Source: an uncultured Collinsella sp. (GTDB lineage: Bacteria; Actinomycetota; Coriobacteriia; Coriobacteriales; Coriobacteriaceae). Taken from it: a DNA stretch of 54,354 nt. The notes under the pieces are model-generated. The model had not been told where the DNA came from. It searched no databases and was given only the letters and a program-made list of their open reading frames with translations. Shown here in pieces: positions 131-36,300 of this stretch. Every line of letters begins with the position of its first letter. Within the stretch, counting starts at the first letter, position 1. Position numbers and translations under genes: made by a program. The stretch covers positions 1 through 54,354 of the forward strand of contig UROO01000001.1 in assembly GCA_900549555.1 (NCBI GenBank), written 5' to 3'.

Positions 131-207
131 GTCCCCATCGTCTAGCGGCCAAGGACGCCACCCTTTCAAGGTGGATATCGCGGGTTCGAATCCCGCTGGG
201 GGCACCA
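131..207 (+). tRNA. tRNA-Glu (anticodon TTC), prophage integration target
   Basis: Acceptor stem GTCCCCA/TGGGGGC, anticodon arm CCACC-CT TTC AA-GGTGG, T-loop GGTTCGAATCC, encoded CCA end; TGCTATACT extended -10-like element at 112-120. Confidence 0.97.
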
Positions 208-1605
208 TTTGCATTTTGTACGAACCCGCTGGATGTCAAGTCTGGCGGGTTCGTTGTTTTCCACGTCGTAGTTCAGCGTCACTATGCACTCTTCGTCGCT
301 CACGCTCGCCTGGTATACGAACGCCTTCAATAGAGTCGCGTCGTCCAGGGCGGAGCCGCATTGCAGGAAGTCGGCCAGCCGCTCGGGGTCTATCTGATCG
401 TCCCTGATCGCCTCAAGGTCGAGCTTGGCGCGGTCGCGCTGATGCTCAAGCTCCGCTATGCGCTCCTTCGCGCCCGGGGCGATTATGCCCTGTTCGATGG
501 CGTTCAGGATGTTCTTCAGGCCGCGCTCGGCGGCCGAGAGCGATTGGGCGGCCTGCTTGCGCCTCGCCGCCACCTCTGCCCCGTCCGAGCTTTCCGCCAC
601 CATGCGGGCTATCCTCAAGGCCTCCTCGCGGTCTTGCAGAAGAGCCCGCAGCGCCTTGACGATCTCGCCCTCAAGCTCCTCGCGCCTGACGGGCTTAACG
701 CATCCGTCGTGGCAGCGGTAGTACTCGTACTTGCGGTTGCCGCGCCCGCGCCCGCTCACGCCTTGCAGGTTGCGCCCGCAGCCCGCGCAGATCGCCTTGC
801 CAGAAAGGGCGAAGTCGCCCCAGCTCTCCGCGCTGCGCTCCTTGGCCGCGCGTATGCCCTGTGCCTCCATGAACGTCACCTCGTCGATGATCGCGGGCAT
901 GCCGCCCTCTTTGACAACGCCGCCCCACTCGTAGCGCCCCGTGTACTTCCGGTTCTTCACCATCCGCTCGACCATCGAGTAGCCGCACGGGTTTCCCTGC
1001 GAGGTCTTGACCCCGCGTGCCGCGAAGTCGCGTGCTATCGAGTTGGTGGCCTCCTTTGCTATGCGCCGCTTGAACGCCTCGCGCACGAAAGCGGCCTCGT
1101 CCTCGTTAATCACGTACTCGTCGGCCTCGTTGCTGGCGTAGCCGAACACGCGCACGCCGTTGGTCTTGCACTTGAGCGCGTTGCCCTCCATGCCGCGCCT
1201 CGTGCGGATCGCGGTCTTCTTCGACTCGCACGCCGCAAGGCCCTCAAGCAGCTTCTCGTAAATGATGCCCTCGGGCGAATCGGGTATCTGTTCAAGCGCC
1301 GAGACGAGCTTCACGCCGTGCTGGGCAAGCTCGCGCTTATATATTGGAGCGTCGTACTCGCCACGGCTGAAGCGATCCATCATGTACACAAGCACTATGT
1401 CGCTCTCGCCAGCGTTCGCGACCATGCGCTGGAACTCGGGGCGGTCGTCGGTGCGCCCGCTTATGGCGTAGTCGCAGTATTCCGCCACGATGGCGTAGCC
1501 CTCGCGTTTGCACCAGTCGCGGCACACGCGCAGCTGGTCGTCTATTGAGGCCTCGCGCTGCTTGTTGCACGAAAAGCGGGCGTATATCACCGCAGTTTTT
1601 GGCAT
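166..1605 (-). CDS. Large serine recombinase (integrase), 479 aa in prophage form
   Basis: MPKTAVIYARFS catalytic Ser motif, DRFSR, recombinase domain, CAGCG...YYRC zinc ribbon, coiled coil; AGGAGG RBS before ATG at 1605; ORF runs across the att core into the tRNA antisense. Confidence 0.95.
   Translation of the reverse strand: MPKTAVIYARFSCNKQREASIDDQLRVCRDWCKREGYAIVAEYCDYAISGRTDDRPEFQRMVANAGESDIVLVYMMDRFSRGEYDAPIYKRELAQHGVKLVSALEQIPDSPEGIIYEKLLEGLAACESKKTAIRTRRGMEGNALKCKTNGVRVFGYASNEADEYVINEDEAAFVREAFKRRIAKEATNSIARDFAARGVKTSQGNPCGYSMVERMVKNRKYTGRYEWGGVVKEGGMPAIIDEVTFMEAQGIRAAKERSAESWGDFALSGKAICAGCGRNLQGVSGRGRGNRKYEYYRCHDGCVKPVRREELEGEIVKALRALLQDREEALRIARMVAESSDGAEVAARRKQAAQSLSAAERGLKNILNAIEQGIIAPGAKERIAELEHQRDRAKLDLEAIRDDQIDPERLADFLQCGSALDDATLLKAFVYQASVSDEECIVTLNYDVENNEPARLDIQRVRTKCKWCPQRDSNPRYPP
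202..207 (+). other. Left attachment core (GCACCA, tRNA 3' end)
   Basis: Same hexamer at 36375-36380; joining the phage-side flanks gives near-palindromic attP GCAAACGGTG|CACCATTTGC. Confidence 0.8.
220..260 (+). terminator. Phage-supplied terminator for tRNA-Glu, overlapping the integrase antisense strand
   Basis: Stem ACGAACCCGC (220-229)/GCGGGTTCGT (245-254) followed by TGTTTT. Confidence 0.65.
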
Positions 1606-1639
1606 AATTGGAAACGGCCTCCTTTCAGAGGTTCTTTGG

Positions 1640-1692
1640 AAAAGCCCCGCGGGCAGCGTTGCAGCGCTATGACCCCGTGGGGCTTCTTCTTT
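1640..1692 (-). terminator. Hairpin/terminator between PH-domain gene and integrase
   Basis: AAGCCCCGCGGG...CCCCGTGGGGCTT inverted repeat flanked by T/A runs. Confidence 0.55.
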
Positions 1693-1693
1693 T

Positions 1694-2233
1694 CTATGCG
1701 TTGATGCGGCGCACGTTCTCGTATGCGAGCTCCGAGAGCAGCGAGTAGAGACCCTGGACGTCGAAGCCCTTCGGGAACTCAAGCGTCTTGGTCTCCGTCT
1801 GCACGCCTTGGACCTTGTAGTACGGGCTTGTGATGTACGCGAACGACAGCTCGGCGTGGTCGAAGCCCATACCGGCCGTCTCAAGGCGCACCCCGACGAT
1901 GCTTTGGAGGTCGATGGACACGGCCGCTGCCTTGGCGCCAGTCATGCCCTGGTGGTCGATGAAGACGATTCTGCGGTCCGTGAACAGCATCTTGTCACGC
2001 ACGAGCGCAAAGCAGCGCGTGAACGACTCTCCACGCATGAGATACATGCCATATTGCTGCTGAGCGGATTCGGCCGAAAGCTCAGAGTAGTGCCCCATCA
2101 CACCCTGCACAACGCCACTAGTGCCTTGACCATTTATGGTTTGCTGGTCACGGTCGATTGCATCTTGTACAGCGCTCTGCGCCTGCGACACAGCTGCATT
2201 TGCCATGTCCTTCATCATATCTTTCAATGCCAC
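1694..2233 (-). CDS. Bacterial PH-domain (bPH_1-like) protein in the lysogeny operon
   Basis: RDKMLFTDRRIVFIDHQGMTG...ETAG motif typical of bacterial PH proteins; directly downstream of the repressor. Confidence 0.75.
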   Translation of the reverse strand: MALKDMMKDMANAAVSQAQSAVQDAIDRDQQTINGQGTSGVVQGVMGHYSELSAESAQQQYGMYLMRGESFTRCFALVRDKMLFTDRRIVFIDHQGMTGAKAAAVSIDLQSIVGVRLETAGMGFDHAELSFAYITSPYYKVQGVQTETKTLEFPKGFDVQGLYSLLSELAYENVRRINA

Positions 2234-3056: not shown

Positions 3057-3415
3057 AGCAGTGGTCTACACGTGAACTCAGATACCTCGAAGAGCACGCT
3101 GGAGACGGCGCCAAGCAGGTAGCCAAGGACCTCGGGCGCTCCATCGACTCAGTGAAGCATATGGCGCGGAAGTGCGGACTCTCACTCCGCAAGCGCAGGC
3201 AGTGCCCCCGCTGCGGCCAATGGACGTTCCGACCGCTCAACAGGGTCAACGGCTGGTGCATCGAGTGCACGAAGGAGCTTCACATGGCAGACCTCGCCGA
3301 ACAGGCCAACGCAATGAAGGAGGAGGCGATCAGGGAGAAGAGGAATGACAGGCAGCGCCAGCGCTACTACAGCCAGAAGAGCAGGGCGAAAAAGGCGACA
3401 AAAAAGAGGCCCTAA
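3053..3415 (+). CDS. HTH + CxxC zinc-finger protein
   Basis: WSTRELRYL...AKDLGRSIDSVK and CPRC/CIEC motifs; coupled start. Confidence 0.7.
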   Translation: MKQWSTRELRYLEEHAGDGAKQVAKDLGRSIDSVKHMARKCGLSLRKRRQCPRCGQWTFRPLNRVNGWCIECTKELHMADLAEQANAMKEEAIREKRNDRQRQRYYSQKSRAKKATKKRP

Positions 3416-3462
3416 AAAGCGCCCTAGCAATGACCTGCGAAAACACCGAAAGGAGAACGGAA

Positions 3463-3747
3463 ATGCAGACAAAAAAGAAAGCGAGCGCCCCCCGCTACCA
3501 CACTTCGGGCACCCGCTACGTAGCCGCCTCGAAAGAGGCTGCATCCATCATACCATTCGAGGGCAAGCGCCCGACGGCGCAGGAGCAGCTTGAGCGCTCC
3601 CAGTTCAAGGCGGGCGTCATGGTCGGCTTCCTCGCGGCCCTCATGATCTTTCTCGCCGTGCTCTGGCTCTGGGTTATCCCCACGATGGACCAGGCCGTTG
3701 CCGACGCCCAGCGAGCCGTGGGCAGCATGGCGGTGCTCAATGCGTAA
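3463..3747 (+). CDS. Hypothetical membrane protein
   Basis: AAGGAG RBS; single hydrophobic helix. Confidence 0.65.
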   Translation: MQTKKKASAPRYHTSGTRYVAASKEAASIIPFEGKRPTAQEQLERSQFKAGVMVGFLAALMIFLAVLWLWVIPTMDQAVADAQRAVGSMAVLNA

Positions 3748-4075
3748 CGACGAGATATACCGCCCCAAGCCCCAGAGCAACCAGCTTGAGATCTTCGGCC
3801 TGGGCATGGCTGGCGAGCAAGACGTTGCCGAGGCCAAGAAGTGGATCGAGGCCAACCCCGAGGCGTGGCGGTTCATGCTCTCCAACGCCCGCCGCCTCAA
3901 GGAGAAGGGCTACGTGTCGATCAACTACCTGGTGAACATGGTGCGCAACGAGCTGCACGTTGGCTGCAAGAACGGCATAGCCCCAGCCCTTGCCCGAATC
4001 ATGGAGGCGCGGTACCCAGAGCTGCGCGGAGCCTTCAACAAGCACCGCAGCCAGAGCGATGGGTTCAGCGAATGA
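3740..4075 (+). CDS. Hypothetical phage protein
   Basis: Overlapping start/stop coupling with neighbours; host-like codon usage. Confidence 0.65.
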   Translation: MRNDEIYRPKPQSNQLEIFGLGMAGEQDVAEAKKWIEANPEAWRFMLSNARRLKEKGYVSINYLVNMVRNELHVGCKNGIAPALARIMEARYPELRGAFNKHRSQSDGFSE

Positions 4076-4533
4076 GCTGGCAGCGCACCCTTGCGGCCAC
4101 GGCGCACATCACCATGCACCCAGCAGAGCTTGTTGGAAAGCAGCGCCCTATGACCGACTACCGCAACCACCGCACCTACACGCCGACCAAGACGCTCAAG
4201 GCCGAGAAGGCCATCAAGGACGCGTTCCGCGCGGCATACGGCGAGACCTTCGCCGACCACGACGGCCCGGTCGTGATGCGGATCTCGACCACCAGGCCGC
4301 TCGCGAAGAGCAACCCGAAGTACTGGGAGGGCCGCGCCGACCTCGGCAAGCCCGACTGGGACAACCTCGGCAAGCTCGCCTGCGACGCGCTCAACGGGAT
4401 CGCCTTCAAGGACGATTCGCAGGTCGACATGGGAGCCGTCACCAAGCGCCCGAGGTCGCCATACGGCACCAAACCACGCATAGACATCTACATCGAGTAC
4501 TTCGTCGAGGAGTACGTGAAGGAGAAGAAATGA
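4072..4533 (+). CDS. rusA: RusA-family Holliday junction resolvase
   Basis: KPDWDNLGKLACDALNGIAFKDDSQV signature. Confidence 0.9.
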   Translation: MSWQRTLAATAHITMHPAELVGKQRPMTDYRNHRTYTPTKTLKAEKAIKDAFRAAYGETFADHDGPVVMRISTTRPLAKSNPKYWEGRADLGKPDWDNLGKLACDALNGIAFKDDSQVDMGAVTKRPRSPYGTKPRIDIYIEYFVEEYVKEKK

Positions 4534-22853: not shown

Positions 22854-23248
22854 TAGGCTTCGCCAGCGACCTCGAGAACAGGCGCGGCGAAGCGATAGCA
22901 GACTTCCAGCAGTTCTACGGCATAGCCCTGCCATTGGATGGAGCGCCCGAAGACCTCGATCGGATGGCGCTCCTCTGGCAGCACCTCCCCGACAACTCGC
23001 GCCTCGCCAAGGCGCAGTACCCGCAACTTAGGTGGAGCACGACCGACTACATGCTCTGGCGTATCGAGCACCAGCTTCGGTGCATCGCCTGGGGCATGGC
23101 CGACAAGAAGGACAGGAGCGCAGAGCCTCCCGAGCCCATCAAGACGCCGGCGCAGCTCGCAGAGCTTGAGCGCCACCGCGCGAACGCGCTGGAAGCCAAG
23201 GAAGAGATAGACAAGATCCTGGGGATAGGAGGGGAAGATGGCGACTAG
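22850..23248 (+). CDS. -1 frameshift extension of the tail chaperone (gpGT-like)
   Basis: Open -1 frame (KLIGFASDLENRR...ADFQQFYG...LPDNSR) without its own RBS/ATG at the junction. Confidence 0.72.
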   Translation, partial: LIGFASDLENRRGEAIADFQQFYGIALPLDGAPEDLDRMALLWQHLPDNSRLAKAQYPQLRWSTTDYMLWRIEHQLRCIAWGMADKKDRSAEPPEPIKTPAQLAELERHRANALEAKEEIDKILGIGGEDGD

Positions 23249-25793
23249 TGTCGGGTCGGCCTATGTGTCCTTGATGCCGTCGATGGACGGCTTCGCGAGC
23301 AAGATCGGCAAGGAGTTCGGCAGCCAGGGCAACGCCGCAGGCAAGGCCTTCGGCGACTCCATGACCGTCGGCATCGACGGCGGGGCCAAGAAGTCCTCGG
23401 GCATCCTGACCGGGCTTGGAACCGTAGCCAAGGGCGTCGCCACTGCGGCGCTAGCTGGGTTCACAGCGCTCACCGGGGCCGTGACCGCGATTGGCGGCGC
23501 GGCCCTTTCCGCATATGCAGACTACGAGCAGCTTGTTGGCGGCGTCGACACGCTGTTCGGCTCCGCGTCGCAGACCCTGCAAGGATATGCCGCAGAGGCG
23601 TACAAGACATGCGGAATGTCCGCCAACCAGTACATGACGCAGGCCACGAGCTTCGCGGCCTCGCTCGTCTCGTCGTGCGGCGGAGACGTGGCCAAGGCGG
23701 CCGACTACGCCAACATGGCGATGGGCGACATGTCGGACAACGTGAACAAGATGGGTTCCGACATGGCGGACGTGCAGAACGCCTACCAAGGCTTTGCGAA
23801 GCAGAACTACACGATGTTGGACAACTTGAAGCTCGGCTACGGCGGCACGCAGGCCGAGATGAAGCGCCTGATTGCAGACGCCAACAAGCTGCGCCAGGAG
23901 CAGGGCAAGAATGCCGACCTCACGATCGACAGCTATGCCGATGTGGTCGAGGCCATCCATACCGTGCAGGAGAACATGGGCATCACCGGCACCACCGCCA
24001 AGGAGGCCGCTACCACGATCAGCGGCTCCATCGGCATGGCGAAGGCCGCGTGGGAGAACTTCATCACCGGACTCGGGCGCGACGACGTTGACTTCTCGCA
24101 GCTCACGCAGCAGCTGCTTGAGTCGATCGGCGCGGTAGCCACAAACGTGGCCCCGAGAGTTGCGCAGATTGGCAAGGGAATCGTCGAGGCGTTCCCGGTT
24201 GTGCTGTCTGGCCTTGGTCCGGTCCTTGGCCCAGTGTTCTCGGAAGCGCTCGCGACAGCTTGGAGCATCGCCGTAGAAGCCTTGGCCGAGCTTGGCATAC
24301 AGCTGCCGACAGTCGACGCTTCCCAGATAACGGGGGCGTTCCAAGCGATCGCCGACACTGCGGCATCCGTCGTAGGCACGTGCAAGTCCGCTTTCGGGCA
24401 GCTTGGCGAGCAGATACCGGGTATCTGGGACACAATCGTCTCGACTGTTAGCGGAGCCGTGATGACGATCATCTCGGCGGTGTCACCGTTCGTGACGTAC
24501 TTCGCATCGCAGATGCTGCCAGCCATCACGTCATTCGCATCTGGCGCAGTCGGCGCGTTCAGCGCCGTGCGGCCTGTTATGGAGCAGCTTGGCTCGACGC
24601 TGCTGAACGTCGGCCAGGCCATCCTGCCCGTGCTGCACAACGCCTTCGCGATGATCGTCCCGATTATCTCGCAGGTCATCGGCGTCGCCATGCAGCTTTT
24701 CGCTGCGGTAAGCCCGCTCGTGTCGCAGGTAGGCGCTGCGCTCATGCCGGCAATCACGTCTATCGGAACGGCGCTCGCAAACCTCGCCAACGCCGTGCTG
24801 CCGATATTGGCTAGCGGCATACAGATAGTGCTCTCCGTGGCTCAGATGCTCATACCGGTAATCCAGATAGTGCTGTCTGTAGTTGGTTCAATCGTGTCCG
24901 TCGTGATAACGGTGGCAAGCCAGGTGATCTCGGTCGTGGTAAACGCCGCATCCGTCGTAGCCTCTGCCATTGGCCTCGTCATGTCGGTCGTGAGCGGCCT
25001 CGTGACTGCGGTTACCACGTTCATCGGCTCGATCGTATCCGTTGTCGGCGGCGGGATAGCTACCGTGGTCGCCGCCGTTTCAGGCGGTGTGAACGCAGTC
25101 GTGGCGTTCATCGGCTCGCTGGTGTCCTCAGCGCTCTCGCTCGTGTCCGGCCTCGTCTCCTCGATCGCCTGGTACTTCTCGACCATGGTGTCGACGATGG
25201 CGAACGCGGCGCAGCAGGTGTACGCGGCAGTGACGGGTGCCTTCTCGGCGCTCGTCGGCGCTGTGTCTGGCCATATCGGGAGCCTCATGAACACCATTTC
25301 CAGCATCCCTGGCCAGGTAATGGGCTTCTTCGCAGGCGCTGGGTCGTGGCTCGTCGGTTCCGGTCGCGCGTTGATCAACGGCTTCACGCAGGGCATCCAG
25401 AACGCAATCGGCGGCGCCCTTTCCGCCGTGTCCGGCGCCGTCTCGCAGATCCGCTCGTTCTTCCCGTTCTCGCCCGCAAAGCGCGGCCCATTCAGCGGCC
25501 ACGGTTATACAACCTACTCGGGCAAGGCGCTCATGGAGGGATGGGCCGAGGGCATCGGCAGCGGCACAGGGGCGGTCAACTCCGCCATCACGTCGGCTCT
25601 AGCCTCCGCAAGCTCGCTTATCGGCTCGGGCATCACGGTCGCTCCGTCGGTTGCCGTTGCCGGGGCAGGTGCCGCCGGCACGACCTACAACGTCACGGTC
25701 AACGGGGGAAGCTTAAACGCAGACCAACGGATCATGCAGGCGGTTGACGTTCTGGTCTCCGCAGCCAAGCGGTCCGCAGGGTCGGGGAGGTAG
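23238..25793 (+). CDS. Tape measure protein
   Basis: 851 aa, Ala/Gly/Ser-rich; YEQLVGGVDTLF, PFSPAKRGP. Confidence 0.93.
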   Translation: MATSVGSAYVSLMPSMDGFASKIGKEFGSQGNAAGKAFGDSMTVGIDGGAKKSSGILTGLGTVAKGVATAALAGFTALTGAVTAIGGAALSAYADYEQLVGGVDTLFGSASQTLQGYAAEAYKTCGMSANQYMTQATSFAASLVSSCGGDVAKAADYANMAMGDMSDNVNKMGSDMADVQNAYQGFAKQNYTMLDNLKLGYGGTQAEMKRLIADANKLRQEQGKNADLTIDSYADVVEAIHTVQENMGITGTTAKEAATTISGSIGMAKAAWENFITGLGRDDVDFSQLTQQLLESIGAVATNVAPRVAQIGKGIVEAFPVVLSGLGPVLGPVFSEALATAWSIAVEALAELGIQLPTVDASQITGAFQAIADTAASVVGTCKSAFGQLGEQIPGIWDTIVSTVSGAVMTIISAVSPFVTYFASQMLPAITSFASGAVGAFSAVRPVMEQLGSTLLNVGQAILPVLHNAFAMIVPIISQVIGVAMQLFAAVSPLVSQVGAALMPAITSIGTALANLANAVLPILASGIQIVLSVAQMLIPVIQIVLSVVGSIVSVVITVASQVISVVVNAASVVASAIGLVMSVVSGLVTAVTTFIGSIVSVVGGGIATVVAAVSGGVNAVVAFIGSLVSSALSLVSGLVSSIAWYFSTMVSTMANAAQQVYAAVTGAFSALVGAVSGHIGSLMNTISSIPGQVMGFFAGAGSWLVGSGRALINGFTQGIQNAIGGALSAVSGAVSQIRSFFPFSPAKRGPFSGHGYTTYSGKALMEGWAEGIGSGTGAVNSAITSALASASSLIGSGITVAPSVAVAGAGAAGTTYNVTVNGGSLNADQRIMQAVDVLVSAAKRSAGSGR

Positions 25794-25796
25794 CCA

Positions 25797-28106
25797 ATGG
25801 GAACCTATACAAGGGAGATTCAGATCGCGGGGTGCAACCGCTGGTATTGCGGCTATATCTCCGTTGACGGCGTGAGCACGGTCAACGACACCACCTCGCG
25901 CATAACAATCACCGCCGCGCTCGAAGACAAGTATGCGGCAGAGTACGGCACGCACTACGACGTGATCGTGAACGGCACCACCTACAGATCGCGCGACGTG
26001 CTGCTCAACAACTACGGGAATTGGGCCACGCGCGACGCCGTGACCTTCACCGTGGACGTCGGACGCGGGGCCAGCGGCTGGAACTGCTCCGTGCAGATCC
26101 ACGTCTACGGCAAGACATACAACAACTACTACGGCAGCGCCGGCGGAGACGCCTGGGCAACAGAGTACGCTTGGATTCCCCAGCGCGGGTACTCGCAGCC
26201 GCACCCGCCAAAGAATCCAAAGCTGGCCCGCGTTTCCGATACCTCGCACAAGATCACGTGGGACGTCGACTACACGGGCATGGACGGCGCATACCCTTGG
26301 GCGGGCGTGTACGTCGATCGGCGCACCGACGACGGCCCATGGGTCAATATCGCCGACGTGTCGTGGGACGTGACCAACTACACCGACAACTCGACGACCG
26401 CAGGCCACAAGTACGAATACCGCCTCTGCGCCCACGGCCCTGGCGGCAACTCCACGCACGTCTCGTGCGGAACCACGTACACAACTCCGTCGGCACCTTC
26501 GCGCATCGATGCCATCAAGGCCGGCGCGTCCGAGGTGACGCTGCGCGTCTACGGGGCGTGGTGGTACGCCAGCGCATGGGATGTTCAGCGATCAGGCGAC
26601 GACGGGAATACGTGGGCGGCGGTCTCGACCACCACCGAGGGCGAAGACCCCGCATGGGTAGACCTGCACGACACCTCCGCGCCTGCCGGCACGATCGTCT
26701 ACCGCGTCAGGGCCAAGCGCGGTAGCCTAACGTCTTCGTGGGTCGAATCGAATTCCGTGACCACGATCACGCCGCCTCTCGCACCGAAGGTCACCGCCGA
26801 CCATGTTGCGCCAACGGGGTCGGCAGCATCCTTCTCGTGGGTGCCCAACCACCCCGACGGCTCGGCTCAGTCCGCCGCGCAACTTGAGCTCGTCGGCAGC
26901 GAGACGATAACGAAGTCGTACACGACCGAGAAAAGCGCATCGGTCACACTCACGAAGGGAAGTTGGAAAGCTCGCGTTCGCACGAAGGGACTGCACGCCG
27001 ATTGGGGCGCTTGGTCTGGCTATGCGGCGATAACGGTCGCCGACTACCCGCAGTGCTGGGTCGCCTCCCCCGCTACCGACGGCATGCTCGTCGATGCGGT
27101 GCCGCTCACGGTGCAAGTCGCCGTAACCGACGAAACTGGCATCGCGCAGGCAACGCTCACGCTCGCAGAGGTCGGCGGCGCGACGGTCGCCACGGCAGAC
27201 GTCACGAACCTGAAGCCCGTGAGTTTCGGCAGCTACGCCACCATACGCAACGGCATCGACTATCTGCTCATGCTCACGGTCAAGGGCGGCTCCGGCCTGT
27301 CCAAGACGGCCATGCGCCGCTTCAAGACGCACTGGGCGGAACCGGCCATCCCAGACGTGTCGCTGTCGTACGACGATGCGCTGGCGTGTCACGTGAAGGT
27401 GCGCAACGGCCTCTCGTCATACGAGATCGAGCAGACCACGCTCGTAGGCCCCATGACGGTCGACGAGGTGAGCAATGAGCTTTCCATGCTAGGCACGATC
27501 ACAGTCGATGGTGACGCGCTGGTGCTCGGCAACGCCTCCCGCTGCTCCGCCTTCACGGTGGAGCGCGTGGCGTACGGCGGCGATGCCGTCATAGCATCCG
27601 GCGTGCTTGACTCCCAAGAGACGATCGACCGCGTGCCGCCGCTAAACACCGACTACGAGTACAAGGTCACCGGGTACGCCGACAACGGCACCTCGTCGCA
27701 GACCGTGACCGATGCCAACGTGTTCGCGCACGGGATGGCGCTTAACTTCGGCCAGGATGCATCGACCGTGCTTGTGCTCGACTACAACGGCGACTACTCG
27801 ACAAGCTCTCAGCGATCCGTAGAGACATACCACTTCGCCGATGGCGGCGAGAACGGCGACCTGCCCATTTCGTACATGCTCGACGAGCTGAACAAAAAGA
27901 CCTCGCTCTCATGGGAGATGAAGCGCGACGGCCACGACAGGTACATACGGATTATGGACGAGCAGTGGAGGGGATGGTGGCGCGGACATGCGGGCGAACG
28001 CGCATACGGCCCCATGGACTTCGATATGTCTGTGAAGGGTGCAGGCATCTGGAAGGGTTCGGCCAACGTCACGCACAACGTCTTCGAGGAGCCGATAAAT
28101 GGCTGA
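25797..28106 (+). CDS. Minor tail protein with FN3/Ig-like beta repeats
   Basis: Thr/Trp/Tyr-rich; YTD...YEYR, YRVRA FN3-like motifs. Confidence 0.75.
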   Translation: MGTYTREIQIAGCNRWYCGYISVDGVSTVNDTTSRITITAALEDKYAAEYGTHYDVIVNGTTYRSRDVLLNNYGNWATRDAVTFTVDVGRGASGWNCSVQIHVYGKTYNNYYGSAGGDAWATEYAWIPQRGYSQPHPPKNPKLARVSDTSHKITWDVDYTGMDGAYPWAGVYVDRRTDDGPWVNIADVSWDVTNYTDNSTTAGHKYEYRLCAHGPGGNSTHVSCGTTYTTPSAPSRIDAIKAGASEVTLRVYGAWWYASAWDVQRSGDDGNTWAAVSTTTEGEDPAWVDLHDTSAPAGTIVYRVRAKRGSLTSSWVESNSVTTITPPLAPKVTADHVAPTGSAASFSWVPNHPDGSAQSAAQLELVGSETITKSYTTEKSASVTLTKGSWKARVRTKGLHADWGAWSGYAAITVADYPQCWVASPATDGMLVDAVPLTVQVAVTDETGIAQATLTLAEVGGATVATADVTNLKPVSFGSYATIRNGIDYLLMLTVKGGSGLSKTAMRRFKTHWAEPAIPDVSLSYDDALACHVKVRNGLSSYEIEQTTLVGPMTVDEVSNELSMLGTITVDGDALVLGNASRCSAFTVERVAYGGDAVIASGVLDSQETIDRVPPLNTDYEYKVTGYADNGTSSQTVTDANVFAHGMALNFGQDASTVLVLDYNGDYSTSSQRSVETYHFADGGENGDLPISYMLDELNKKTSLSWEMKRDGHDRYIRIMDEQWRGWWRGHAGERAYGPMDFDMSVKGAGIWKGSANVTHNVFEEPING

Positions 28107-29184
28107 TTGGGGAAAACCGTTCCTCACCTCGTTCCGCTTCATGCGCGTAGACCGCGCAAGCGGCAACGAGGTCGAGAGAATCACGAACATAAAGAACGGC
28201 GGGTGCATTGAGCGCAACCAGGACAAGGACTACACCACAGGGCAGGTCGATTACTCCAGGGCGCTCGATATCGGGGCAGATCTGCTGCGGGTGTACCTCG
28301 ATGCCGACTTCGGTGGCGCGTCAGTCAGTGAGGCGCTGGGGACTTTCGTTGTCTCAGCGCCGAAAAGGACCAGACGCGGCGTCAACTCAACCGGCACGGC
28401 AGTCCTGTCGGGCAGGCTGTCGGAGGTTGCGGAGGACGAATTCGATGCCCCATTCACGGTGGCGGCTGGAACCGTGGTTGTCCCCTACGTCGTAAAGTTG
28501 CTCAAGGCGGCTGGCTTCGCTGACGTGATCGCCGAAGGCTCCGACTACAAGCTAGCGCAGGATTGGACGCTCGGAATCGATTCGGGCGACATGAGGCTGT
28601 CGAAGCGCCTGGCGGCGTGCAACGCGCTGCTCGACGTGGCGGGCTTCCGCGCCGTCGACGAGGACGCCTACGGAAGGCCCGTACTTCGCAGATATAGGGA
28701 GCCGCAGGACAGGCCCGTTTCCATGACCCTTCGAGAGGGCTCTGGCGCACGCTTCATCAACGAGGTAGTCGACGAGCTTGACCGCTCGGGCGTCGCCAAC
28801 GTGGTGCACTGCGACTACGAAACGCAGGACGCCTTCTACCGTGGCACGGCCATCGACTCAGACCCGAGCAGCCCTTACTCCACGGTTTCGCGCGGTTGGC
28901 GCAAGACGGCCACGTACAGCTACAGCGACCTGCCCGAGGGGTCTACCGATGCCGAGAGACAGAGGAACGCCGATGCCAAGGCTAACGAGATGCTGCGAAC
29001 ACAGCAGAGCGCTATCCGTAGAGTCACGGTCAAGCGGACGTACGCGCCTATCGCGTGCGGCGATGCCGTGATGGTCGATTGGGCAAGCGCCGGCATCAGC
29101 GGCAAGTTCGCGGTGAGGACTGCGACTCTCACGCTCGTGGGAGGATGCCCAATCGAGATGGAGGTGAAGAGGTATGAGCGATGA
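28099..29184 (+). CDS. Minor tail (hub-like) protein
   Basis: Synteny; DPSSPYST..RG motif. Confidence 0.7.
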   Translation: MADWGKPFLTSFRFMRVDRASGNEVERITNIKNGGCIERNQDKDYTTGQVDYSRALDIGADLLRVYLDADFGGASVSEALGTFVVSAPKRTRRGVNSTGTAVLSGRLSEVAEDEFDAPFTVAAGTVVVPYVVKLLKAAGFADVIAEGSDYKLAQDWTLGIDSGDMRLSKRLAACNALLDVAGFRAVDEDAYGRPVLRRYREPQDRPVSMTLREGSGARFINEVVDELDRSGVANVVHCDYETQDAFYRGTAIDSDPSSPYSTVSRGWRKTATYSYSDLPEGSTDAERQRNADAKANEMLRTQQSAIRRVTVKRTYAPIACGDAVMVDWASAGISGKFAVRTATLTLVGGCPIEMEVKRYER

Positions 29185-29441: not shown

Positions 29442-30167
29442 ATGGCAGATACCAACAAAGGCGCGGCGCTGCTGCTCAACGATGCGGGTAACATCGACCG
29501 CGCCAGAACCACCGACGGCTCGATCTTCCGCATCGAGTCGACGCTATCGATGGAGGCCGCCGAAGAGGCCAAGACGGCAGCGGCGAACTGCAACACCGCG
29601 ACTGAAAGCGCCGAAGCGGCAGAGAAGACGCGCGTGTCCAACGAGAACGCTCGGAAAACGGCTGAGACCGAGCGCGGCAACAACGAGACAACCCGCAAGA
29701 ACAACGAGACGTCGCGCAAGAACGCCGAGACAACACGTCAAGACAACGAAACTGCGCGAAAGAATGCCGAAACCACGCGCCAGAACAACGAGACGAGCCG
29801 ATCGAACGCCGAGATTGAACGCAAAAAGGCCGAAAGCCAGCGCCATGACGAGCATATCGCCGACCAACAAGCATCGAGCAACGCGACCTCTGCGGCGAAC
29901 GGCGCGGCTTCGCGTGCGGACGCAGCGGCGAACCAGGCGTTGCAGATCGCCAACTCCGTGGCGCAAGGCAGCGCAGGAAGCTCGGACGTCGCGGAGCTGC
30001 GTGCCCAGAACGCGAAGCTCGCGACGCTTTTGGCGAACTCGACAGGTCAGTTCATATACATGGGCGGAACAGTCTACTGCCCGGCTTCAAAGGCATCGGC
30101 GAGCGGGGTGACCGTAACGTTCGGCTCAACATGCTCCGCAAGCGGCAATACCATCACATTGATTTAA
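29442..30167 (+). CDS. Coiled-coil tail fibre-like protein
   Basis: 7-aa repeats E-T-x-R-x-N-N/A; AGGAGG RBS. Confidence 0.7.
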   Translation: MADTNKGAALLLNDAGNIDRARTTDGSIFRIESTLSMEAAEEAKTAAANCNTATESAEAAEKTRVSNENARKTAETERGNNETTRKNNETSRKNAETTRQDNETARKNAETTRQNNETSRSNAEIERKKAESQRHDEHIADQQASSNATSAANGAASRADAAANQALQIANSVAQGSAGSSDVAELRAQNAKLATLLANSTGQFIYMGGTVYCPASKASASGVTVTFGSTCSASGNTITLI

Positions 30168-30179
30168 GAAGGAAACGAA

Positions 30180-31091
30180 ATGGCTCAAGCTAAGATCCTC
30201 ACAGTGGGCGGCACCAACTACGAGATGATAGACGACACCGCCCGCACCAACGCCACCACGGCGCTCAACAACGCCGAGTACAACCGACAGGGCCTGATCG
30301 GCAAGTACCCGGGCCAGTCGCTCGCAACGCTTCTCGCGGGCGAGGTCTCAGGCTCCGCCACCATCTACGACGCGCTGCACAAGCGCGTGCAGGCCGCGAA
30401 CTTCAGCGGCATGCGCGTGGGCGACTACATCGACGTGCCGCTCGTGAGCGCGTCAAACGTGGCGGCCCAGCAGTCCGTGCGCTTCCTGCTTGCGCACTTC
30501 GACCCGTACTACCAGTGCGGCGACAGCGCCAAGGGCCACCACATCGCGTTCATCGCGTCCGCGCCCGTCGCCGTGGCCAAGACCGTCACCGGCGTGGCCA
30601 ACGACAGCTACCTGATGTGGAACACTGCGAACACCAACCAGGGCACCGCAGACGTGAAGAACCCGTACCTGAACAGCAACCTCAAGGCGTGGGAGAAGCT
30701 GTTCGAGGCGTGCCTGCCCGAGGGGCTGACCAAGTACCTGCTCACCCAGCGCGTGCTGCTTGAGGAGCGTTACAGCGCGAGCGGCGCGCTCGGCGACTCC
30801 AACAGCTGGAGCTGGCAGGACATCGGCAAGGTGTGGTCGCCCTCCGAGATGGAGGTGTACGGCTGCCCAGTGTGGGGCACCAAGGGCTACAGCGTGGGCT
30901 TCGACTGCCAGTTCGACCTGTTCCGCGATACCGCGCACCGCTTGAACGGAACTCGGTGCGCTTGGTGGCTGCGTTCCGTCATGGGTGGCTCCTCGTCCAG
31001 CGTGTGCTACGTCAACGGCCACGGCGCTGCCTCCTTCGATTTGGCGACGACCGCCTGGGTTCGCCCCCGCCCCGGCTTCCTCGTCGGCTAG
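30180..31091 (+). CDS. DGR target protein, putative receptor-binding protein (C-type-lectin-like C-terminus)
   Basis: PSEMEVYG, WWLRS...CYV...VRPRPGF; 3' end matches TR. Confidence 0.92.
   Translation: MAQAKILTVGGTNYEMIDDTARTNATTALNNAEYNRQGLIGKYPGQSLATLLAGEVSGSATIYDALHKRVQAANFSGMRVGDYIDVPLVSASNVAAQQSVRFLLAHFDPYYQCGDSAKGHHIAFIASAPVAVAKTVTGVANDSYLMWNTANTNQGTADVKNPYLNSNLKAWEKLFEACLPEGLTKYLLTQRVLLEERYSASGALGDSNSWSWQDIGKVWSPSEMEVYGCPVWGTKGYSVGFDCQFDLFRDTAHRLNGTRCAWWLRSVMGGSSSSVCYVNGHGAASFDLATTAWVRPRPGFLVG
30953..31080 (+). repeat. DGR variable repeat (VR)
   Basis: 128-nt gapless alignment to 31692-31819; 17 mismatches, 16 at TR adenines. Confidence 0.96.
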
Positions 31092-31119
31092 CCAGCCGAG
31101 TGCTCTATACTTCTCTTTC

Positions 31120-31173
31120 GATGCGACCGCCTTGCGCGGTCGCATCCCTGCCCGCGCAGCGGGCCGTTTTTTT
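31120..31173 (+). promoter_or_regulatory. Double hairpin downstream of VR (DGR target recognition and/or terminator)
   Basis: GATGCGACCGC-CTTGC-GCGGTCGCATC (31120-31146); GCCCGC-GCA-GCGGGC (31150-31164) then T7. Confidence 0.75.
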
Positions 31174-31196
31174 CGCAACTATTTCCGGGAGGTGCC

Positions 31197-31667
31197 ATGA
31201 GCGGCGTCTACCAGCGAAACCGCGAGGTGTCCGAGTACAAGTTCTTCACGCAGGCCATCGCCATCCGCGTGGAGGTCAACAAGCTCATGGCCTCCTCGTC
31301 GGTCGTGCCGAAAGCCTACAGGCTGCTGAACGCAGTCCCCACGGTGGAGACCGCGCGCAGCATCGTATACAACGTCAACCGCGCCGACTGCTTCTACCCC
31401 AACAGTTCGTTCAACGCACTTGAGCGCAAGCGTTACCTGACGCTGGCGATAGCCGACTGCGAGCAGCTGATGCTCGACATGCAGTGCCTCATGGACATCG
31501 GCCTGCCCGTGAACGCCAACCGCTTCGAGGCGCTGGCGGGCATGGTCGAGGAGGAGATCAAACTGCTCAAGGGCGCGCGCAAGAACGTACGCGTCACCGG
31601 CAAGAAGACGACCGACGAGCGCATAGCCGAGGCCGAGGCCGAGCTAGAGCGCCTGCGTTCGTTATAA
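31197..31667 (+). CDS. avd: DGR accessory protein (Avd-like four-helix bundle)
   Basis: 156 aa helical protein between target and TR; GGAGG RBS. Confidence 0.8.
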   Translation: MSGVYQRNREVSEYKFFTQAIAIRVEVNKLMASSSVVPKAYRLLNAVPTVETARSIVYNVNRADCFYPNSSFNALERKRYLTLAIADCEQLMLDMQCLMDIGLPVNANRFEALAGMVEEEIKLLKGARKNVRVTGKKTTDERIAEAEAELERLRSL

Positions 31668-31691
31668 TGGGCGGCGGTCCCGCCTTGTATA

Positions 31692-31819
31692 TCGGTACAA
31701 TTGGTGGCTGCGTTCCGTCATGGGTGGCTCCTCGTCCAACGTGTGCTACGTCAACAACAACGGCAATGCCAACTACAATTCGGCGACGAACACCTGGGTT
31801 CGCCCCCGCCCCGGATTCC
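31692..31819 (+). ncRNA. DGR template repeat (TR)
   Basis: Intergenic; 9 AAY codons in the VR frame; 25 adenines. Confidence 0.96.
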
Positions 31820-32031
31820 CTTACTGCCAGACCGAGTAGGCCAGCGGGCCGAAAGCAGAGCGCGGAGAGGAAGGAAGGCGCGACCATCGGGCGCGAGCCC
31901 GTAAATACGCACCCCGCGAGGGTGGCCGGACGCTGCTTGCATGGCGCGGCGCTCCGTGGCTTCGCCGCGTTTCATGGCCATACCTCAAGCGGCTGTCAGA
32001 GCCACATTGCAAGCCGTGCGGGGTGCCTTCT

Positions 32032-33240
32032 ATGAACTCGGAGCAAAGGCGGGCCGCACGCCGGAAGCGCCGCGAGGAGAAGCGCGCCAGGGCCAAGGCC
32101 GAGCGCGTCAAGGCGTGCACCCTTGAGACGGTGGCCGACCTCAACAGCCTGTGCAAGGCTTCCAAGCAGGCCGCGCGTGGCGTCATGTGGAAGGCCTCGA
32201 CGCAGCAGTACATGAAGGACTACCTGCGAAACGCCGTGAAATCGCGCCAAGACCTTTTGGAGGGCCGCGACATATGCCGGGGTTTCATCCGCTTCGACCT
32301 GTGGGAGCGCGGCAAGCTGCGCCACATCAGTGCAGTGCACTTCCCCGAGCGCGTGGTGCAGAAGTCGCTGTCCCAGAACGCCCTCGTGCCCGCGATAGTC
32401 CCCACGCTCGTATCCGCGAACTCCGCCAACATCAAGGGGCGCGGCACCGACTACGCCCTTAAGCTGCTCAAGCGCCACCTGGCCGACCACTGGCGGCGGC
32501 ATGGGCGCGAGGGCTACATACTGCTGGGCGACTTCTCCGACTACTTCGCGCGCATTGCCCACGAGCCGGTCAAGCGGCAGGTGGCCGACGCGCTGCTCGA
32601 CCCGCGCGTGGTCGCCCTTGAGCACCGCCTGATAGACGCGCAGGGCGAGGTCGGCCTGGGCCTGGGCAGCGAGCCAAACCAGATATGCGCGGTGGCGCAC
32701 CCCAACCGCATCGACCACTACGTGGCCGAGATGCTGCGCCCCGAGGCCTACGGGCGCTACATGGACGACTTCTACCTGATCCACGAGTCCAAGGAGTACC
32801 TGCAAGTGTGCCTTCTGCTGATAGAGCACGAGTGCGCGAAGCTCGGCATCGCGCTGAACCCGCGCAAGACCCGCGTGGTGAAGCTGACGCGCGGCTTCAC
32901 GTGGCTGAAGAAGCGCATCTTCTACACCGAAACGGGCCGCATCGTCATGAAGCCGTGCCGCGACTCCATCACGCGCGAGCGACGCAAGCTGAAGAAGATG
33001 GCCCGCATGGTGGCCGAGGGGGTCATGACGCCCGAGCAGGTGCAGCAGAGCTACCAGAGCTGGCGCGGCGGCATGGCTCACTCGGACGCGCACCGCAGCG
33101 TGCTGGCCATGGACGCGCTGTACCGCAGCCTGTTCGAAAATCTCGCGGGGGGGTTGCTCAATGCAACCAAGCCCGAGAGACGATTCGGGCGGAACGCCCT
33201 CGCCATAGCGGAAGGGCGGCAACTCAAAACGGCGGCCTAG
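32032..33240 (+). CDS. DGR reverse transcriptase
   Basis: ERGKLRHI, ERVVQ, GRGT, GDFSDYF, GLGLGSEPNQ, YGRYMDDF; alternative GTG start at 32023. Confidence 0.96.
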   Translation: MNSEQRRAARRKRREEKRARAKAERVKACTLETVADLNSLCKASKQAARGVMWKASTQQYMKDYLRNAVKSRQDLLEGRDICRGFIRFDLWERGKLRHISAVHFPERVVQKSLSQNALVPAIVPTLVSANSANIKGRGTDYALKLLKRHLADHWRRHGREGYILLGDFSDYFARIAHEPVKRQVADALLDPRVVALEHRLIDAQGEVGLGLGSEPNQICAVAHPNRIDHYVAEMLRPEAYGRYMDDFYLIHESKEYLQVCLLLIEHECAKLGIALNPRKTRVVKLTRGFTWLKKRIFYTETGRIVMKPCRDSITRERRKLKKMARMVAEGVMTPEQVQQSYQSWRGGMAHSDAHRSVLAMDALYRSLFENLAGGLLNATKPERRFGRNALAIAEGRQLKTAA

Positions 33241-35271: not shown

Positions 35272-36300
35272 ATGAACGGAATCGACATCAGCAATTGGCA
35301 GAACGGCATCAACCTCGCGGCTGTCCCGTTCGACTTCGTTATCTGCAAGGCTACCGAGGGCACGCGCTACGTGTCGCCCGACTGCGACCGCCAAATCCAG
35401 CAGGCGATTGGCCTTGGCAAGCTTGTGGGCGTGTACCACTACGTCAACGGCGGCGATGCCGATGCGGAGGCCGAGTACTTCTACGAGCACTGCAAGGGCT
35501 ACGTCGGCAAGGCCGCGTTCTTCATCGACTGGGAGGATCAGGGCAACGAGGCGTGGGGCGACACGTCCTACCTCAAGGCCATGGCAGAGCGTTTGGCCGA
35601 GCTTCTGGGCTTTGGCATGGATCGCATCGGCATCTACGCATCCAAGAGCGTGTTCCCGTGGAACCTCACCGGCGCCAAGACGTGGGTGGCGCAGTACGCC
35701 GACATGAACGCCACGGGCTACCAGGACGCGCCTTGGAACGAGGGCGCTTACGACTGCGCCATCCGCCAGTACTCCTCGTGCGGGCGCCTGGACGGCTGGG
35801 CGGGCAACCTCGACATCAACAAGTGCTATATCTCCCGCGCGGAGTGGGAGGCCATGGCGGGTGGCTCCAACGGCGATCCCGACTCGCTTATCCACGGCAT
35901 CGACGAGACGCCTGCGGCAGACCTCGCGGCAAAGGTGCTCGCGGGCGAGTTCGGCGACGGCGACGACCGCAAGCACGCGCTGGGCAACCGCTACTCCGAG
36001 GTGCAGGCGCTCGTGAACCACATTCTCACGGCATCCGCCGAGGATCTGGCCGCTGAGACCTGGGCAGGCGATTACGGCAACGGCAGCCGCCGCAAGGCTG
36101 TTTTGGGGCCGCGCTACGACGAGGTTATGGCGGTCATCAACGGGCAGGCCGAAACCGAGCAGGTGTACGTGGCGCAGAGCGGCGACACCCTTTCCGGAAT
36201 CGCCTCAAAGTACGGCACGACCTATCAGGATCTCGCCGCCAAGAACGGCATCTCAAACCCGAATCTGATCTATCCCGGCATGCGCCTGGTTGTTTCCTAG
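35272..36300 (+). CDS. Endolysin: GH25 muramidase + two CW_7-like repeats + LysM
   Basis: GIDISNWQ, KATEG, IDWE, QYSS; GEFGDGDDRK..LG and GDYGNGSRRK..LG; GDTLSGIA...NPNLIYPG. Confidence 0.95.
   Translation: MNGIDISNWQNGINLAAVPFDFVICKATEGTRYVSPDCDRQIQQAIGLGKLVGVYHYVNGGDADAEAEYFYEHCKGYVGKAAFFIDWEDQGNEAWGDTSYLKAMAERLAELLGFGMDRIGIYASKSVFPWNLTGAKTWVAQYADMNATGYQDAPWNEGAYDCAIRQYSSCGRLDGWAGNLDINKCYISRAEWEAMAGGSNGDPDSLIHGIDETPAADLAAKVLAGEFGDGDDRKHALGNRYSEVQALVNHILTASAEDLAAETWAGDYGNGSRRKAVLGPRYDEVMAVINGQAETEQVYVAQSGDTLSGIASKYGTTYQDLAAKNGISNPNLIYPGMRLVVS

Follow-up and report, generated by a model that had tools for sequence, protein, structure and literature searches.

A complete and very probably functional diversity-generating retroelement with a DUF6273 target in a siphovirus-like Collinsella prophage

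A 54,354-nucleotide (nt) stretch of DNA from an uncultured Collinsella sp. (contig UROO01000001.1, positions 1-54,354, assembly GCA_900549555.1; hereafter the window) carries a diversity-generating retroelement (DGR) in a prophage. A target gene ending in a variable region (VR), an Avd-like accessory gene, a template repeat (TR), a structured RNA and a reverse transcriptase (RT) gene follow one another in a single cassette (coordinates in Table 1). It is very probable that this cassette is a functional DGR of the type known from Bordetella phage BPP-1, residing in a siphovirus-like Collinsella prophage. The DGR family to which it belongs is active in nature, and comparison with its relatives suggests that the present copy is active as well. 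The original prediction, made from the letters of the sequence, had described a complete cassette in one orientation with all parts intact, and this description stands: the reading frames of target, Avd-like protein and RT are open, and TR and RNA are in place.

The assignment is founded on the repeat pair. VR and TR align over 128 nt without a gap at an offset of 739 and share 111 of the 128 bases. Sixteen of the 17 mismatches fall on TR adenines, and the remaining one is a TR C to VR T change at 31042. With A accounting for 25 of the 128 TR bases, at least 16 of 17 mismatches would coincide with A by chance at P ~6e-11. The gapless alignment, the mismatch counts and the codon changes quoted in the original prediction (AAC>GGC, AAC>TCC, AAT>GCT, TAC>TTC) were all reproduced exactly, albeit that position 31076 was later recognised as fixed. 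At this site TR carries A and VR carries C in 77 of the 77 VR/TR pairs compared (see below); the difference constitutes a marker fixed where the homology ends and does not stem from mutagenesis. Therefore, only 15 of the mismatches in the window are mutagenic. In the frame of the target, 24 of the 25 TR adenines occupy codon positions 1-2 and the last (31076) occupies position 3. The codons with a mutable A comprise nine AAY, three TAC and one each of ATG, ACG and ACC, and a stop codon cannot be reached by an A-to-N change in any TR codon; a codon check thereby agrees with the arrangement as first proposed. The coding space computes to 4^24 = 2.8e14 DNA variants, the ~3e14 anticipated, and to 15^9 x 4^5 x 3 = 1.2e14 peptides. 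The diversified stretch may start one base earlier, at 30952, with a 25th adenine. The TR counterpart of this base (31691) is A in 76 of 77 pairs, related VRs hold C, A, T or G here (variable, i.e. non-C, in 17 of 76), and the base 5' of 30952 keeps differing between VR and TR. A BLAST search for a second target with TR against the whole genome matched only TR, VR and a 33-nt spacer of a CRISPR array (clustered regularly interspaced short palindromic repeats).

The natural variation of the repeats was read from related loci. Of 170 candidate stretches in species-representative genomes, 102 were found to code for a relative, and 80 loci were retained; a further 45 related loci were taken from IMG/VR, giving a total of 125 (L001-L125). 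At the threshold used, both repeats were found in 76 loci, one in 12 and none in 37, many of the latter being contigs that stop short or more distant relatives. The 76 loci and the window make up the 77 VR/TR pairs. Across these pairs 871 of 921 mismatches are located at a TR A. With the fixed site set aside, A sites differ in 794 of 1782 cases (44.6%) as compared to 50 of 7997 (0.63%) for non-A sites, and the adenines are changed to G (417), C (206) and T (171). The pairs contain 73 distinct VRs and 43 distinct TRs. Moreover, non-A polymorphisms of TR are mirrored in the cognate VR (e.g. index 87, T/C at 49:28, and index 101, C/T at 53:24, with 0 mismatches), which shows TR-to-VR copying within lineages, as repeated copying predicts. 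An ordinary duplication that diverged by ordinary mutation or selection, without reverse transcription, is an extremely improbable explanation of the pair. Nothing beyond the existence of a repeat speaks in its favour, whereas the adenine bias in the window and among the 77 pairs, the copying of TR polymorphisms into VRs and the adjacent DGR-type RT with its RNA all contradict it.

The closest relatives show how fast the VR changes. Sixteen relatives match the window to at least 99.3% along the 700 nt 5' of VR. In all of them TR deviates from that of the window by 0-2 bases, yet VR differs at 13-18 of the 24 A sites and at 1-3 of the 104 other sites. VR turnover in the family outpaces the flank divergence of 0.1-0.7%. 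Contigs of four public runs (three studies), otherwise near-identical to the window, differ mainly at the same sites, and two runs of one study (X2 and X3) carry the same VR. Two VR contig variants in run X1 were considered as possible within-strain variation and rejected, as X1 holds several related phages. The check proposed at the outset, i.e. VR variation at TR-A positions next to a stable TR, thus comes out positive for the family. On the protein level, 112 of 120 listed relatives of the target were aligned (eight longer than 320 amino acids (aa) were dropped), and exactly the nine AAY positions display 10-14 residue types and an entropy of 2.7-3.4 bits, to be compared with a mean of 0.32 bits outside VR. 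For the Bordetella enzyme (bRT), misincorporation is given as 52% at A and 0.5-3% at other bases in the portion of the preprint cited here (bioRxiv 10.1101/2020.04.29.068544). The natural rates of 45% at A and 0.6% elsewhere resemble these figures, although selection has acted on the natural data.

A related observation concerns the public assemblies. Twenty of the 125 related contigs end inside VR, and Logan contigs also break at VR and TR, as expected for a repeated and heterogeneous stretch. Assemblers stumble on the VR/TR repeat, which often leaves the DGR targets of this phage truncated in such assemblies.

At its 3' end, the VR/TR homology is gone after 31080, just past the fixed C/A difference at 31076. 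The G/C-only tract preceding this difference is near-invariant, each of its positions being kept in at least 75 of 77 pairs. In known systems, initiation of mutagenic homing (IMH) is assigned to a G/C-rich element at the 3' end of VR, and a difference between the VR and TR versions (IMH and IMH*) marks the recipient. The tract, the fixed difference and the loss of homology observed here would correspond to an element of the IMH/IMH* type. Hairpins had likewise been predicted downstream of VR, and three were located. The region that contains them folds with a z-score of -4.5, and 0 of 200 shuffled sequences fold as well. The sequence of the first hairpin is kept in 73-77 of 77 relatives at each position and, because of this conservation, shows no testable covariation.

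The RT is clearly recognizable as a DGR enzyme. It matches RVT_1 (E 5.9e-11) and phrog_1423 (E 1.9e-65), and its best match in the PDB is 8ub7_A (E 3.5e-13), an entry titled DGR ribonucleoprotein reverse transcriptase (Bordetella bRT); the next match, a group II maturase, follows at E 2.3e-5. The gene most likely starts at ATG 32032 and not at GTG 32023, its open reading frame (ORF) is full length when compared with a relative (P0275), and it is the one RT gene in the whole genome. Among 120 of its relatives, 115 have LGxxxNQ and 114 have YMDD. The G homopolymer close to the end of the gene was noted separately. It ranges from G7 to G11 in 57 readable relatives, G8 being the commonest, and the different lengths yield three alternative C-terminal tails, the whole RT then measuring ~402/403, 409-412 or 392 aa. 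When the RT is aligned with bRT and with the RT of Roseburia phage Shimadzu (LR596903), the alignments stop at residues 365 and 368, respectively. An on/off switch of the RT by the poly-G tract was considered and found unlikely with the tract located beyond the conserved core. Because it lies outside the part shared with bRT and the Shimadzu RT, the run is probably a neutral slippage site.

The gene between VR and TR had been called avd-like, and its predicted structure supports the name. The AlphaFold2 (AF2) model, built from an alignment of 66 relatives chosen from 150 listed of 196, has a predicted local distance difference test (pLDDT) score of 94.6 and forms a four-helix bundle. It superposes on Bordetella Avd (4dwl_D) with a target-normalised TM-score (TMt) of 0.86 and a root-mean-square deviation of 2.1 over 117 columns, and on Avd in the ribonucleoprotein (8ub7_B) with TMt 0.75. 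Bundles of the PF05635 type superpose as well, and the top rows of a Foldseek search were 2rld and 2gsc (TMt 0.87, E 1.5e-3); the E values for the bundle matches reach only 1.5e-3 to 0.2, a weakness that helical bundles usually show. Over its full length the protein is homologous to the annotated Avd of phage Shimadzu (26% identical, E 1e-12), and its core is basic (pI 9.2 for residues 1-136). Searches of NCBIfam, PHROGs and the PDB returned nothing (in the latter case, a profile search without significant match). Among 67 aligned relatives, two match PF05635 (23S_rRNA_IVP, best 1.5e-4) and one matches PF22296 (bAvd, 0.0084). In summary, the accessory protein is to be regarded as Avd-like by modelled fold and by position, not by a Pfam hidden Markov model.

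Between TR and the RT gene, Rfam identifies RT-2 RNA with 141.4 bits against a gathering score of 40, covering the full model (1-222). RT-2 RNA was found 3' of TR in 16 of 16 related loci scanned, and in all 18 loci examined (the window, 16 relatives and Shimadzu) it stands directly after a DGR TR. Sixteen of 40 predicted RT-2 pairs keep pairing despite changes on both sides (13 sequences). RT-2 belongs to the motifs RT-1 to RT-19 of Weinberg et al. 2017, where, in the part of the text drawn on here, only RT-10 is tied to DGRs and a role of the others is speculated; RT-10 occupies the position between TR and RT in BPP-1 (PMC5737381). Our literature searches found no paper naming RT-2 in a DGR. 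According to the passages available from a preprint on the Bordetella complex, based on cryogenic electron microscopy, bRT-Avd is wrapped by the RNA surrounding the template, which also establishes cis-priming, and stem-loops right after TR are common in DGRs (10.1101/2023.10.23.563531). Judged from sequence and location, RT-2 RNA appears to be the "spacer" part of the DGR RNA, whereby an orphan Rfam family would gain a concrete job.

The target is a DUF6273 protein (PF19789; E 3.3e-7, 30.8 bits against a gathering score of 23.5), and the same Pfam family is matched by 37 of 37 aligned relatives; by sequence, the target has no match in PHROGs, NCBIfam or the PDB. VR lies at its C-terminus, inside the ORF. 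Its similarity to Shimadzu orf22, annotated as "tail fibre protein", covers the C-terminal 250 residues of the latter (34% identity, E 4e-43). DUF6273 targets have been modelled as C-type-lectin-like with VR at the C-terminus, as described in excerpts of three sources (PMC10743442, PMC11792537, bioRxiv 10.1101/2024.10.15.618418). From gene order, homology to orf22 and these published models, we infer that the target is the receptor-binding tip of the tail. It had been introduced as a distal tail protein; its gene is the last of the tail module and it resembles an annotated tail fibre, but the term should not be taken to mean Dit. A different function in an equally active DGR was considered, namely that of an adhesin which binds some other ligand (mucus or glycans, for example). 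The sections at hand of two sources list Ig-domain "tentaclins" and a Hoc-like head-decoration protein among DUF6273 targets (PMC10743442, bioRxiv 10.1101/2024.10.15.618418), and the present target has no PHROG match. Conversely, a Pfam scan detected no Ig-like domains in the target, its gene comes directly after tape measure, tail-protein and fibre-like genes, and the Shimadzu homologue follows baseplate genes and is a tail fibre, by annotation only. We thus consider the adhesin unlikely, albeit with some chance of being correct, and favour the receptor-binding tail tip.

Several observations weigh against a functional BPP-1-type DGR with a lectin-like target. The AF2 model of the target (37-sequence alignment) reaches a mean pLDDT of only 52.7, with residues 190-296 below 50; the aligned relatives resemble one another too closely (identities of 55-96%, with only two under 70%). 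A search for similar structures, run on this poor model, returned seven rows at Z 2-4, below any safe threshold; low-Z rows include TvpA (2y3c, 2.2), PvdO (5hha, 2.4), the C-terminal domain of Lcl (8q4e, 2.1) and an IgA peptidase (9qa6, 4.0). Sequence and profile searches of the PDB for a solved relative of the target were empty or at noise level, and the ESM Atlas held its own DUF6273 clusters only, with no model. A lectin fold is accordingly suggested by Pfam, literature and gene order. The RT carries LGSEPNQ at the (I/V/L)GxxxSQ site, and the strict SQ dipeptide is absent. In the cited part of the defining work, this signature is assigned to domain 4, NQ is among the accepted variants, and 15 of 155 DGR elements vary in the last two signature residues (PMC3521204). 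The accessory protein has no Pfam match at E <=0.01, PF05635 and PF22296 included. The non-A change at 31042 (Ser288Leu) is unique to the window among the 77 pairs; it could have arisen either through an RT error at a base other than A or through a point mutation acquired afterwards. Finally, the variation was read from assembled contigs of many samples (all 23 listed runs are contigs) and is therefore a comparison between samples.

The last two points also bear on the possibility that the DGR is real but the present copy is now silent, its VR/TR differences being left from past homing events in the lineage. Contigs offer no within-sample view, one substitution in VR is not at A, and runs X2 and X3 share their VR, all of which would fit a silent copy. 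On the other hand, RT, Avd-like gene, TR, RT-2 RNA and G/C tract are intact and almost identical to those of relatives with differing VRs, and the VR turnover in the family is faster than the divergence of the flanks. A silent copy is hence rated as quite improbable, and a functional DGR is retained as the preferred assignment.

For such a functional DGR, the following sequence of events can be proposed. RT and Avd-like protein, both encoded in the cassette, would bind a transcript comprising TR and RT-2 RNA in analogy to the Bordetella complex. The structured RNA would position the template for self-primed synthesis of complementary DNA (cDNA). The RT would copy C, G and U faithfully and misincorporate opposite A, the outcome of which is seen in the natural variants. 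The cDNA would then replace the VR of the target gene, with position and conservation suggesting that replacement ends on the 3' side at the G/C tract and the fixed VR/TR difference beside it, and TR stays unchanged, as observed. As a result, 15 surface positions of the C-terminal DUF6273 domain would be available in up to ~1e14 versions, and a variable tail tip of this kind would let the phage follow changes of the Collinsella surface.

Spacers that match the DGR were found in the host genus. A contig of the host genome (C41; L134) carries a type II CRISPR-Cas system with an array of 19 repeats and 18 spacers (3166-4389). Spacer 4 (3399-3428) matches the resident TR (31760-31789) in 28 of 30 positions, and both mismatches are located at TR adenines, a coincidence with a chance of ~0.1 since 10 of the 30 TR bases are A. 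The resident VR is far more different from the spacer than TR, and no better match was present among the sampled TRs and VRs. Spacer 4 looks as if it had been taken from a VR variant of a related phage. Spacer 8 of the same array has a 31/31 match in a tail gene of related phages (L124, L115 and others), not in the window. The same CRISPR repeat occurs in 9 of 200 other genomes of the genus, with 153 distinct spacers, and one spacer from another genome (L142, G036) matches the RT-2 region at 31988-32017 in 30 of 30 positions, as well as 75 related loci. It should be noted that the protospacer database is biased to the DGR region, and spacer matches have no bearing on enrichment; a protospacer-adjacent motif was not derivable from six protospacers.

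A combined proposal can be made that we regard as improbable: RT-2 would be the self-priming RNA of a large, cross-phylum lineage of gut DGRs, and TR together with RT-2 would be a recurrent target of the hosts' type II CRISPR, with a related phage as the source of the spacer, which would derive from its mutagenised VR or its DGR cDNA. If true, VR hypermutation would let the phage escape spacers while the invariant TR and RT-2 RNA stay behind as a conserved weak point, and the host would tolerate the resident prophage only on account of the two adenine mismatches between its TR and the spacer.

The cassette is embedded in a prophage that extends from a serine integrase to an endolysin, as assigned by PHROG scans of 30 ORFs in the window (G+C content, 62%), and it is placed between tail and lysis genes. 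The order of tape measure, tail genes, cassette and endolysin identifies the cassette as the last block of the tail module, and by its gene content the carrier is classified as a siphovirus-like prophage. Host genes beyond the prophage are glutamine-synthetase-like and metH-like. The 3' end of the integrase ORF (166-1884) overlaps the tRNA-Glu (131-207) by ~40 nt. A direct repeat of at least 12 nt between the two prophage ends was not found; the lack of such an att-type repeat is as expected for a serine integrase. The gene 5' of the target (29442-30167) encodes 241 aa with a run of roughly seven-residue repeats (N-N/A-E-T-x-R-K type). It has weak PHROG matches to a virion structural protein and looks like a fibre stalk. 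The idea of a split fibre, in which this gene would supply the missing N-terminus of the Shimadzu fibre, was ruled out, as the two are not homologous. A Coriobacteriia-like prophage had been predicted, and 71 of the 80 kept genome loci are indeed titled Collinsella, a member of the class Coriobacteriia, the remainder mostly bearing other Coriobacteriia labels. A megablast search against 50,697 phage records gave no match to the prophage at the DNA level.

Table 1. Features of the DGR cassette, of the prophage that carries it, and of the CRISPR and Shimadzu sequences used for comparison. Positions refer to the window unless another sequence is named.
Feature	Position	Strand	Description
DGR target gene	30180-31091	+	303 aa; DUF6273 (PF19789) at residues 159-296; last tail-module gene
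Variable region (VR)	30953-31080	+	target residues 258-301; start possibly 30952
IMH-like tract	31062-31075	+	14 nt, G/C only; 3' end of VR/TR homology, read from sequence
Hairpin 1	31084-31099	+	6-bp stem, 4-nt loop; 3 nt past VR, over the stop codon
Hairpin 2	31120-31146	+	11-bp stem
Terminator-like hairpin	31150-31164	+	followed by a T-run; hairpin 2 to T-run spans 31120-31173
Avd-like accessory gene	31197-31667	+	156 aa; modelled four-helix bundle and extra C-terminal helix
Template repeat (TR)	31692-31819	+	25 A, 24 mutable
RT-2 RNA (Rfam RF03077)	31822-32046	+	structured RNA, 225 nt; overlaps first 15 nt of the RT gene
DGR reverse transcriptase	32032-33240	+	402 aa; YMDD, LGxxxNQ
G7 homopolymer	33147-33153	+	RT codons 372-374; length varies among relatives
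tRNA-Glu	131-207		adjoins the integrase ORF
Large serine integrase	166-1884		PHROG scan
Small and large terminase, portal, protease, scaffold, major head protein			in this order after the integrase; PHROG
Adaptors, major tail protein, chaperone			next in order; PHROG
Tape measure	23238-25793		after the chaperone; PHROG
769-aa protein			after the tape measure; PHROG
Tail protein	28099-29184		phrog_1887; after the 769-aa protein, DGR cassette later; PHROG
Endolysin	35272-36300		3' of the cassette; PHROG
Cas9	C41 4681-7740	-	
Cas1	C41 1834-2724	-	
Shimadzu target / Avd / RT-2 RNA / RT cassette	L135 1752-5047		

Although its kind of DGR is ordinary, the element resides in a prophage that ranks among the commonest of Collinsella, a genus prevalent in the human gut, and in public metagenomes the protein clusters of its target and RT families (90% identity) number in the hundreds to thousands. 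The prophage is also carried by cultured Collinsella aerofaciens isolates. With a common prophage and cultured carriers, the cassette therefore offers a practical system for DGR-driven tropism in a Gram-positive gut actinobacterium, and its natural in vivo rates invite comparison with enzymological data on the Bordetella enzyme.

Comparison with known systems places the cassette close to BPP-1, whose DGR reads mtd-avd-TR-brt. As had been proposed for its architecture, the order of the parts is the same, with a target with C-terminal VR, an accessory gene, TR, a structured RNA and RT; substitution is adenine-specific in both, bRT is the best solved relative of the RT, and the accessory protein adopts an Avd-like fold in the model. 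In BPP-1, too, the VR/TR homology finishes in a tract of G and C only, with a hairpin just downstream. The two systems differ in the target, which is a DUF6273 protein without detectable sequence link to Mtd in Collinsella, and in the accessory protein, which has an extra C-terminal helix and no match to an Avd Pfam family. Moreover, the RT signature ends in NQ instead of SQ, the host is a Gram-positive gut actinobacterium, and the RNA between TR and RT is RT-2 here and, as far as stated in the portion of the source used, RT-10 in BPP-1 (PMC5737381).

The closest deposited phage is Shimadzu, which contains a homologous cassette in the same order and at the same place, followed by an endolysin as in Collinsella. 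The RTs are 52% identical, RT-2 RNA scores 144.9 bits, and target and Avd are homologous at the identities given above. Conversely, the host of Shimadzu belongs to the phylum Bacillota, its tail is myovirus-like (baseplate J / P2_I genes), and the two phages have no similarity at the DNA level. The Shimadzu target is longer (431 aa), and its 180-aa N-terminal part is absent from the Collinsella target and not supplied by the upstream gene. Because a homologous cassette is found in a myovirus-like phage of a Bacillota host, sequence comparison indicates that this DGR lineage has passed from phage to phage across phyla and tail types.

Gut-phage DGRs that diversify DUF6273 proteins have been published before, and the Collinsella cassette adds one more; the prophage itself may already be listed in the supplementary tables of large DGR surveys. 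The known examples (Faecalibacterium prophages Lelie, CP11, Roos and Pioen; nd4/nd12; Toutatisvirus) share the Pfam domain and the location of VR at the C-terminal end, and the RTs of Roos and nd12 are 30-33% identical to that of Collinsella. Their hosts are Bacillota, and several of them have two targets or Ig-domain fusions, whereas the Collinsella cassette has just one, short target, and its genome contains no further VR. As to the RNA, the full-length match to RF03077 and its position adjoining the RT gene are as described for the Rfam family. In difference to the Weinberg RT motifs, however, RT-2 here stands directly after the TR of a demonstrable DGR.

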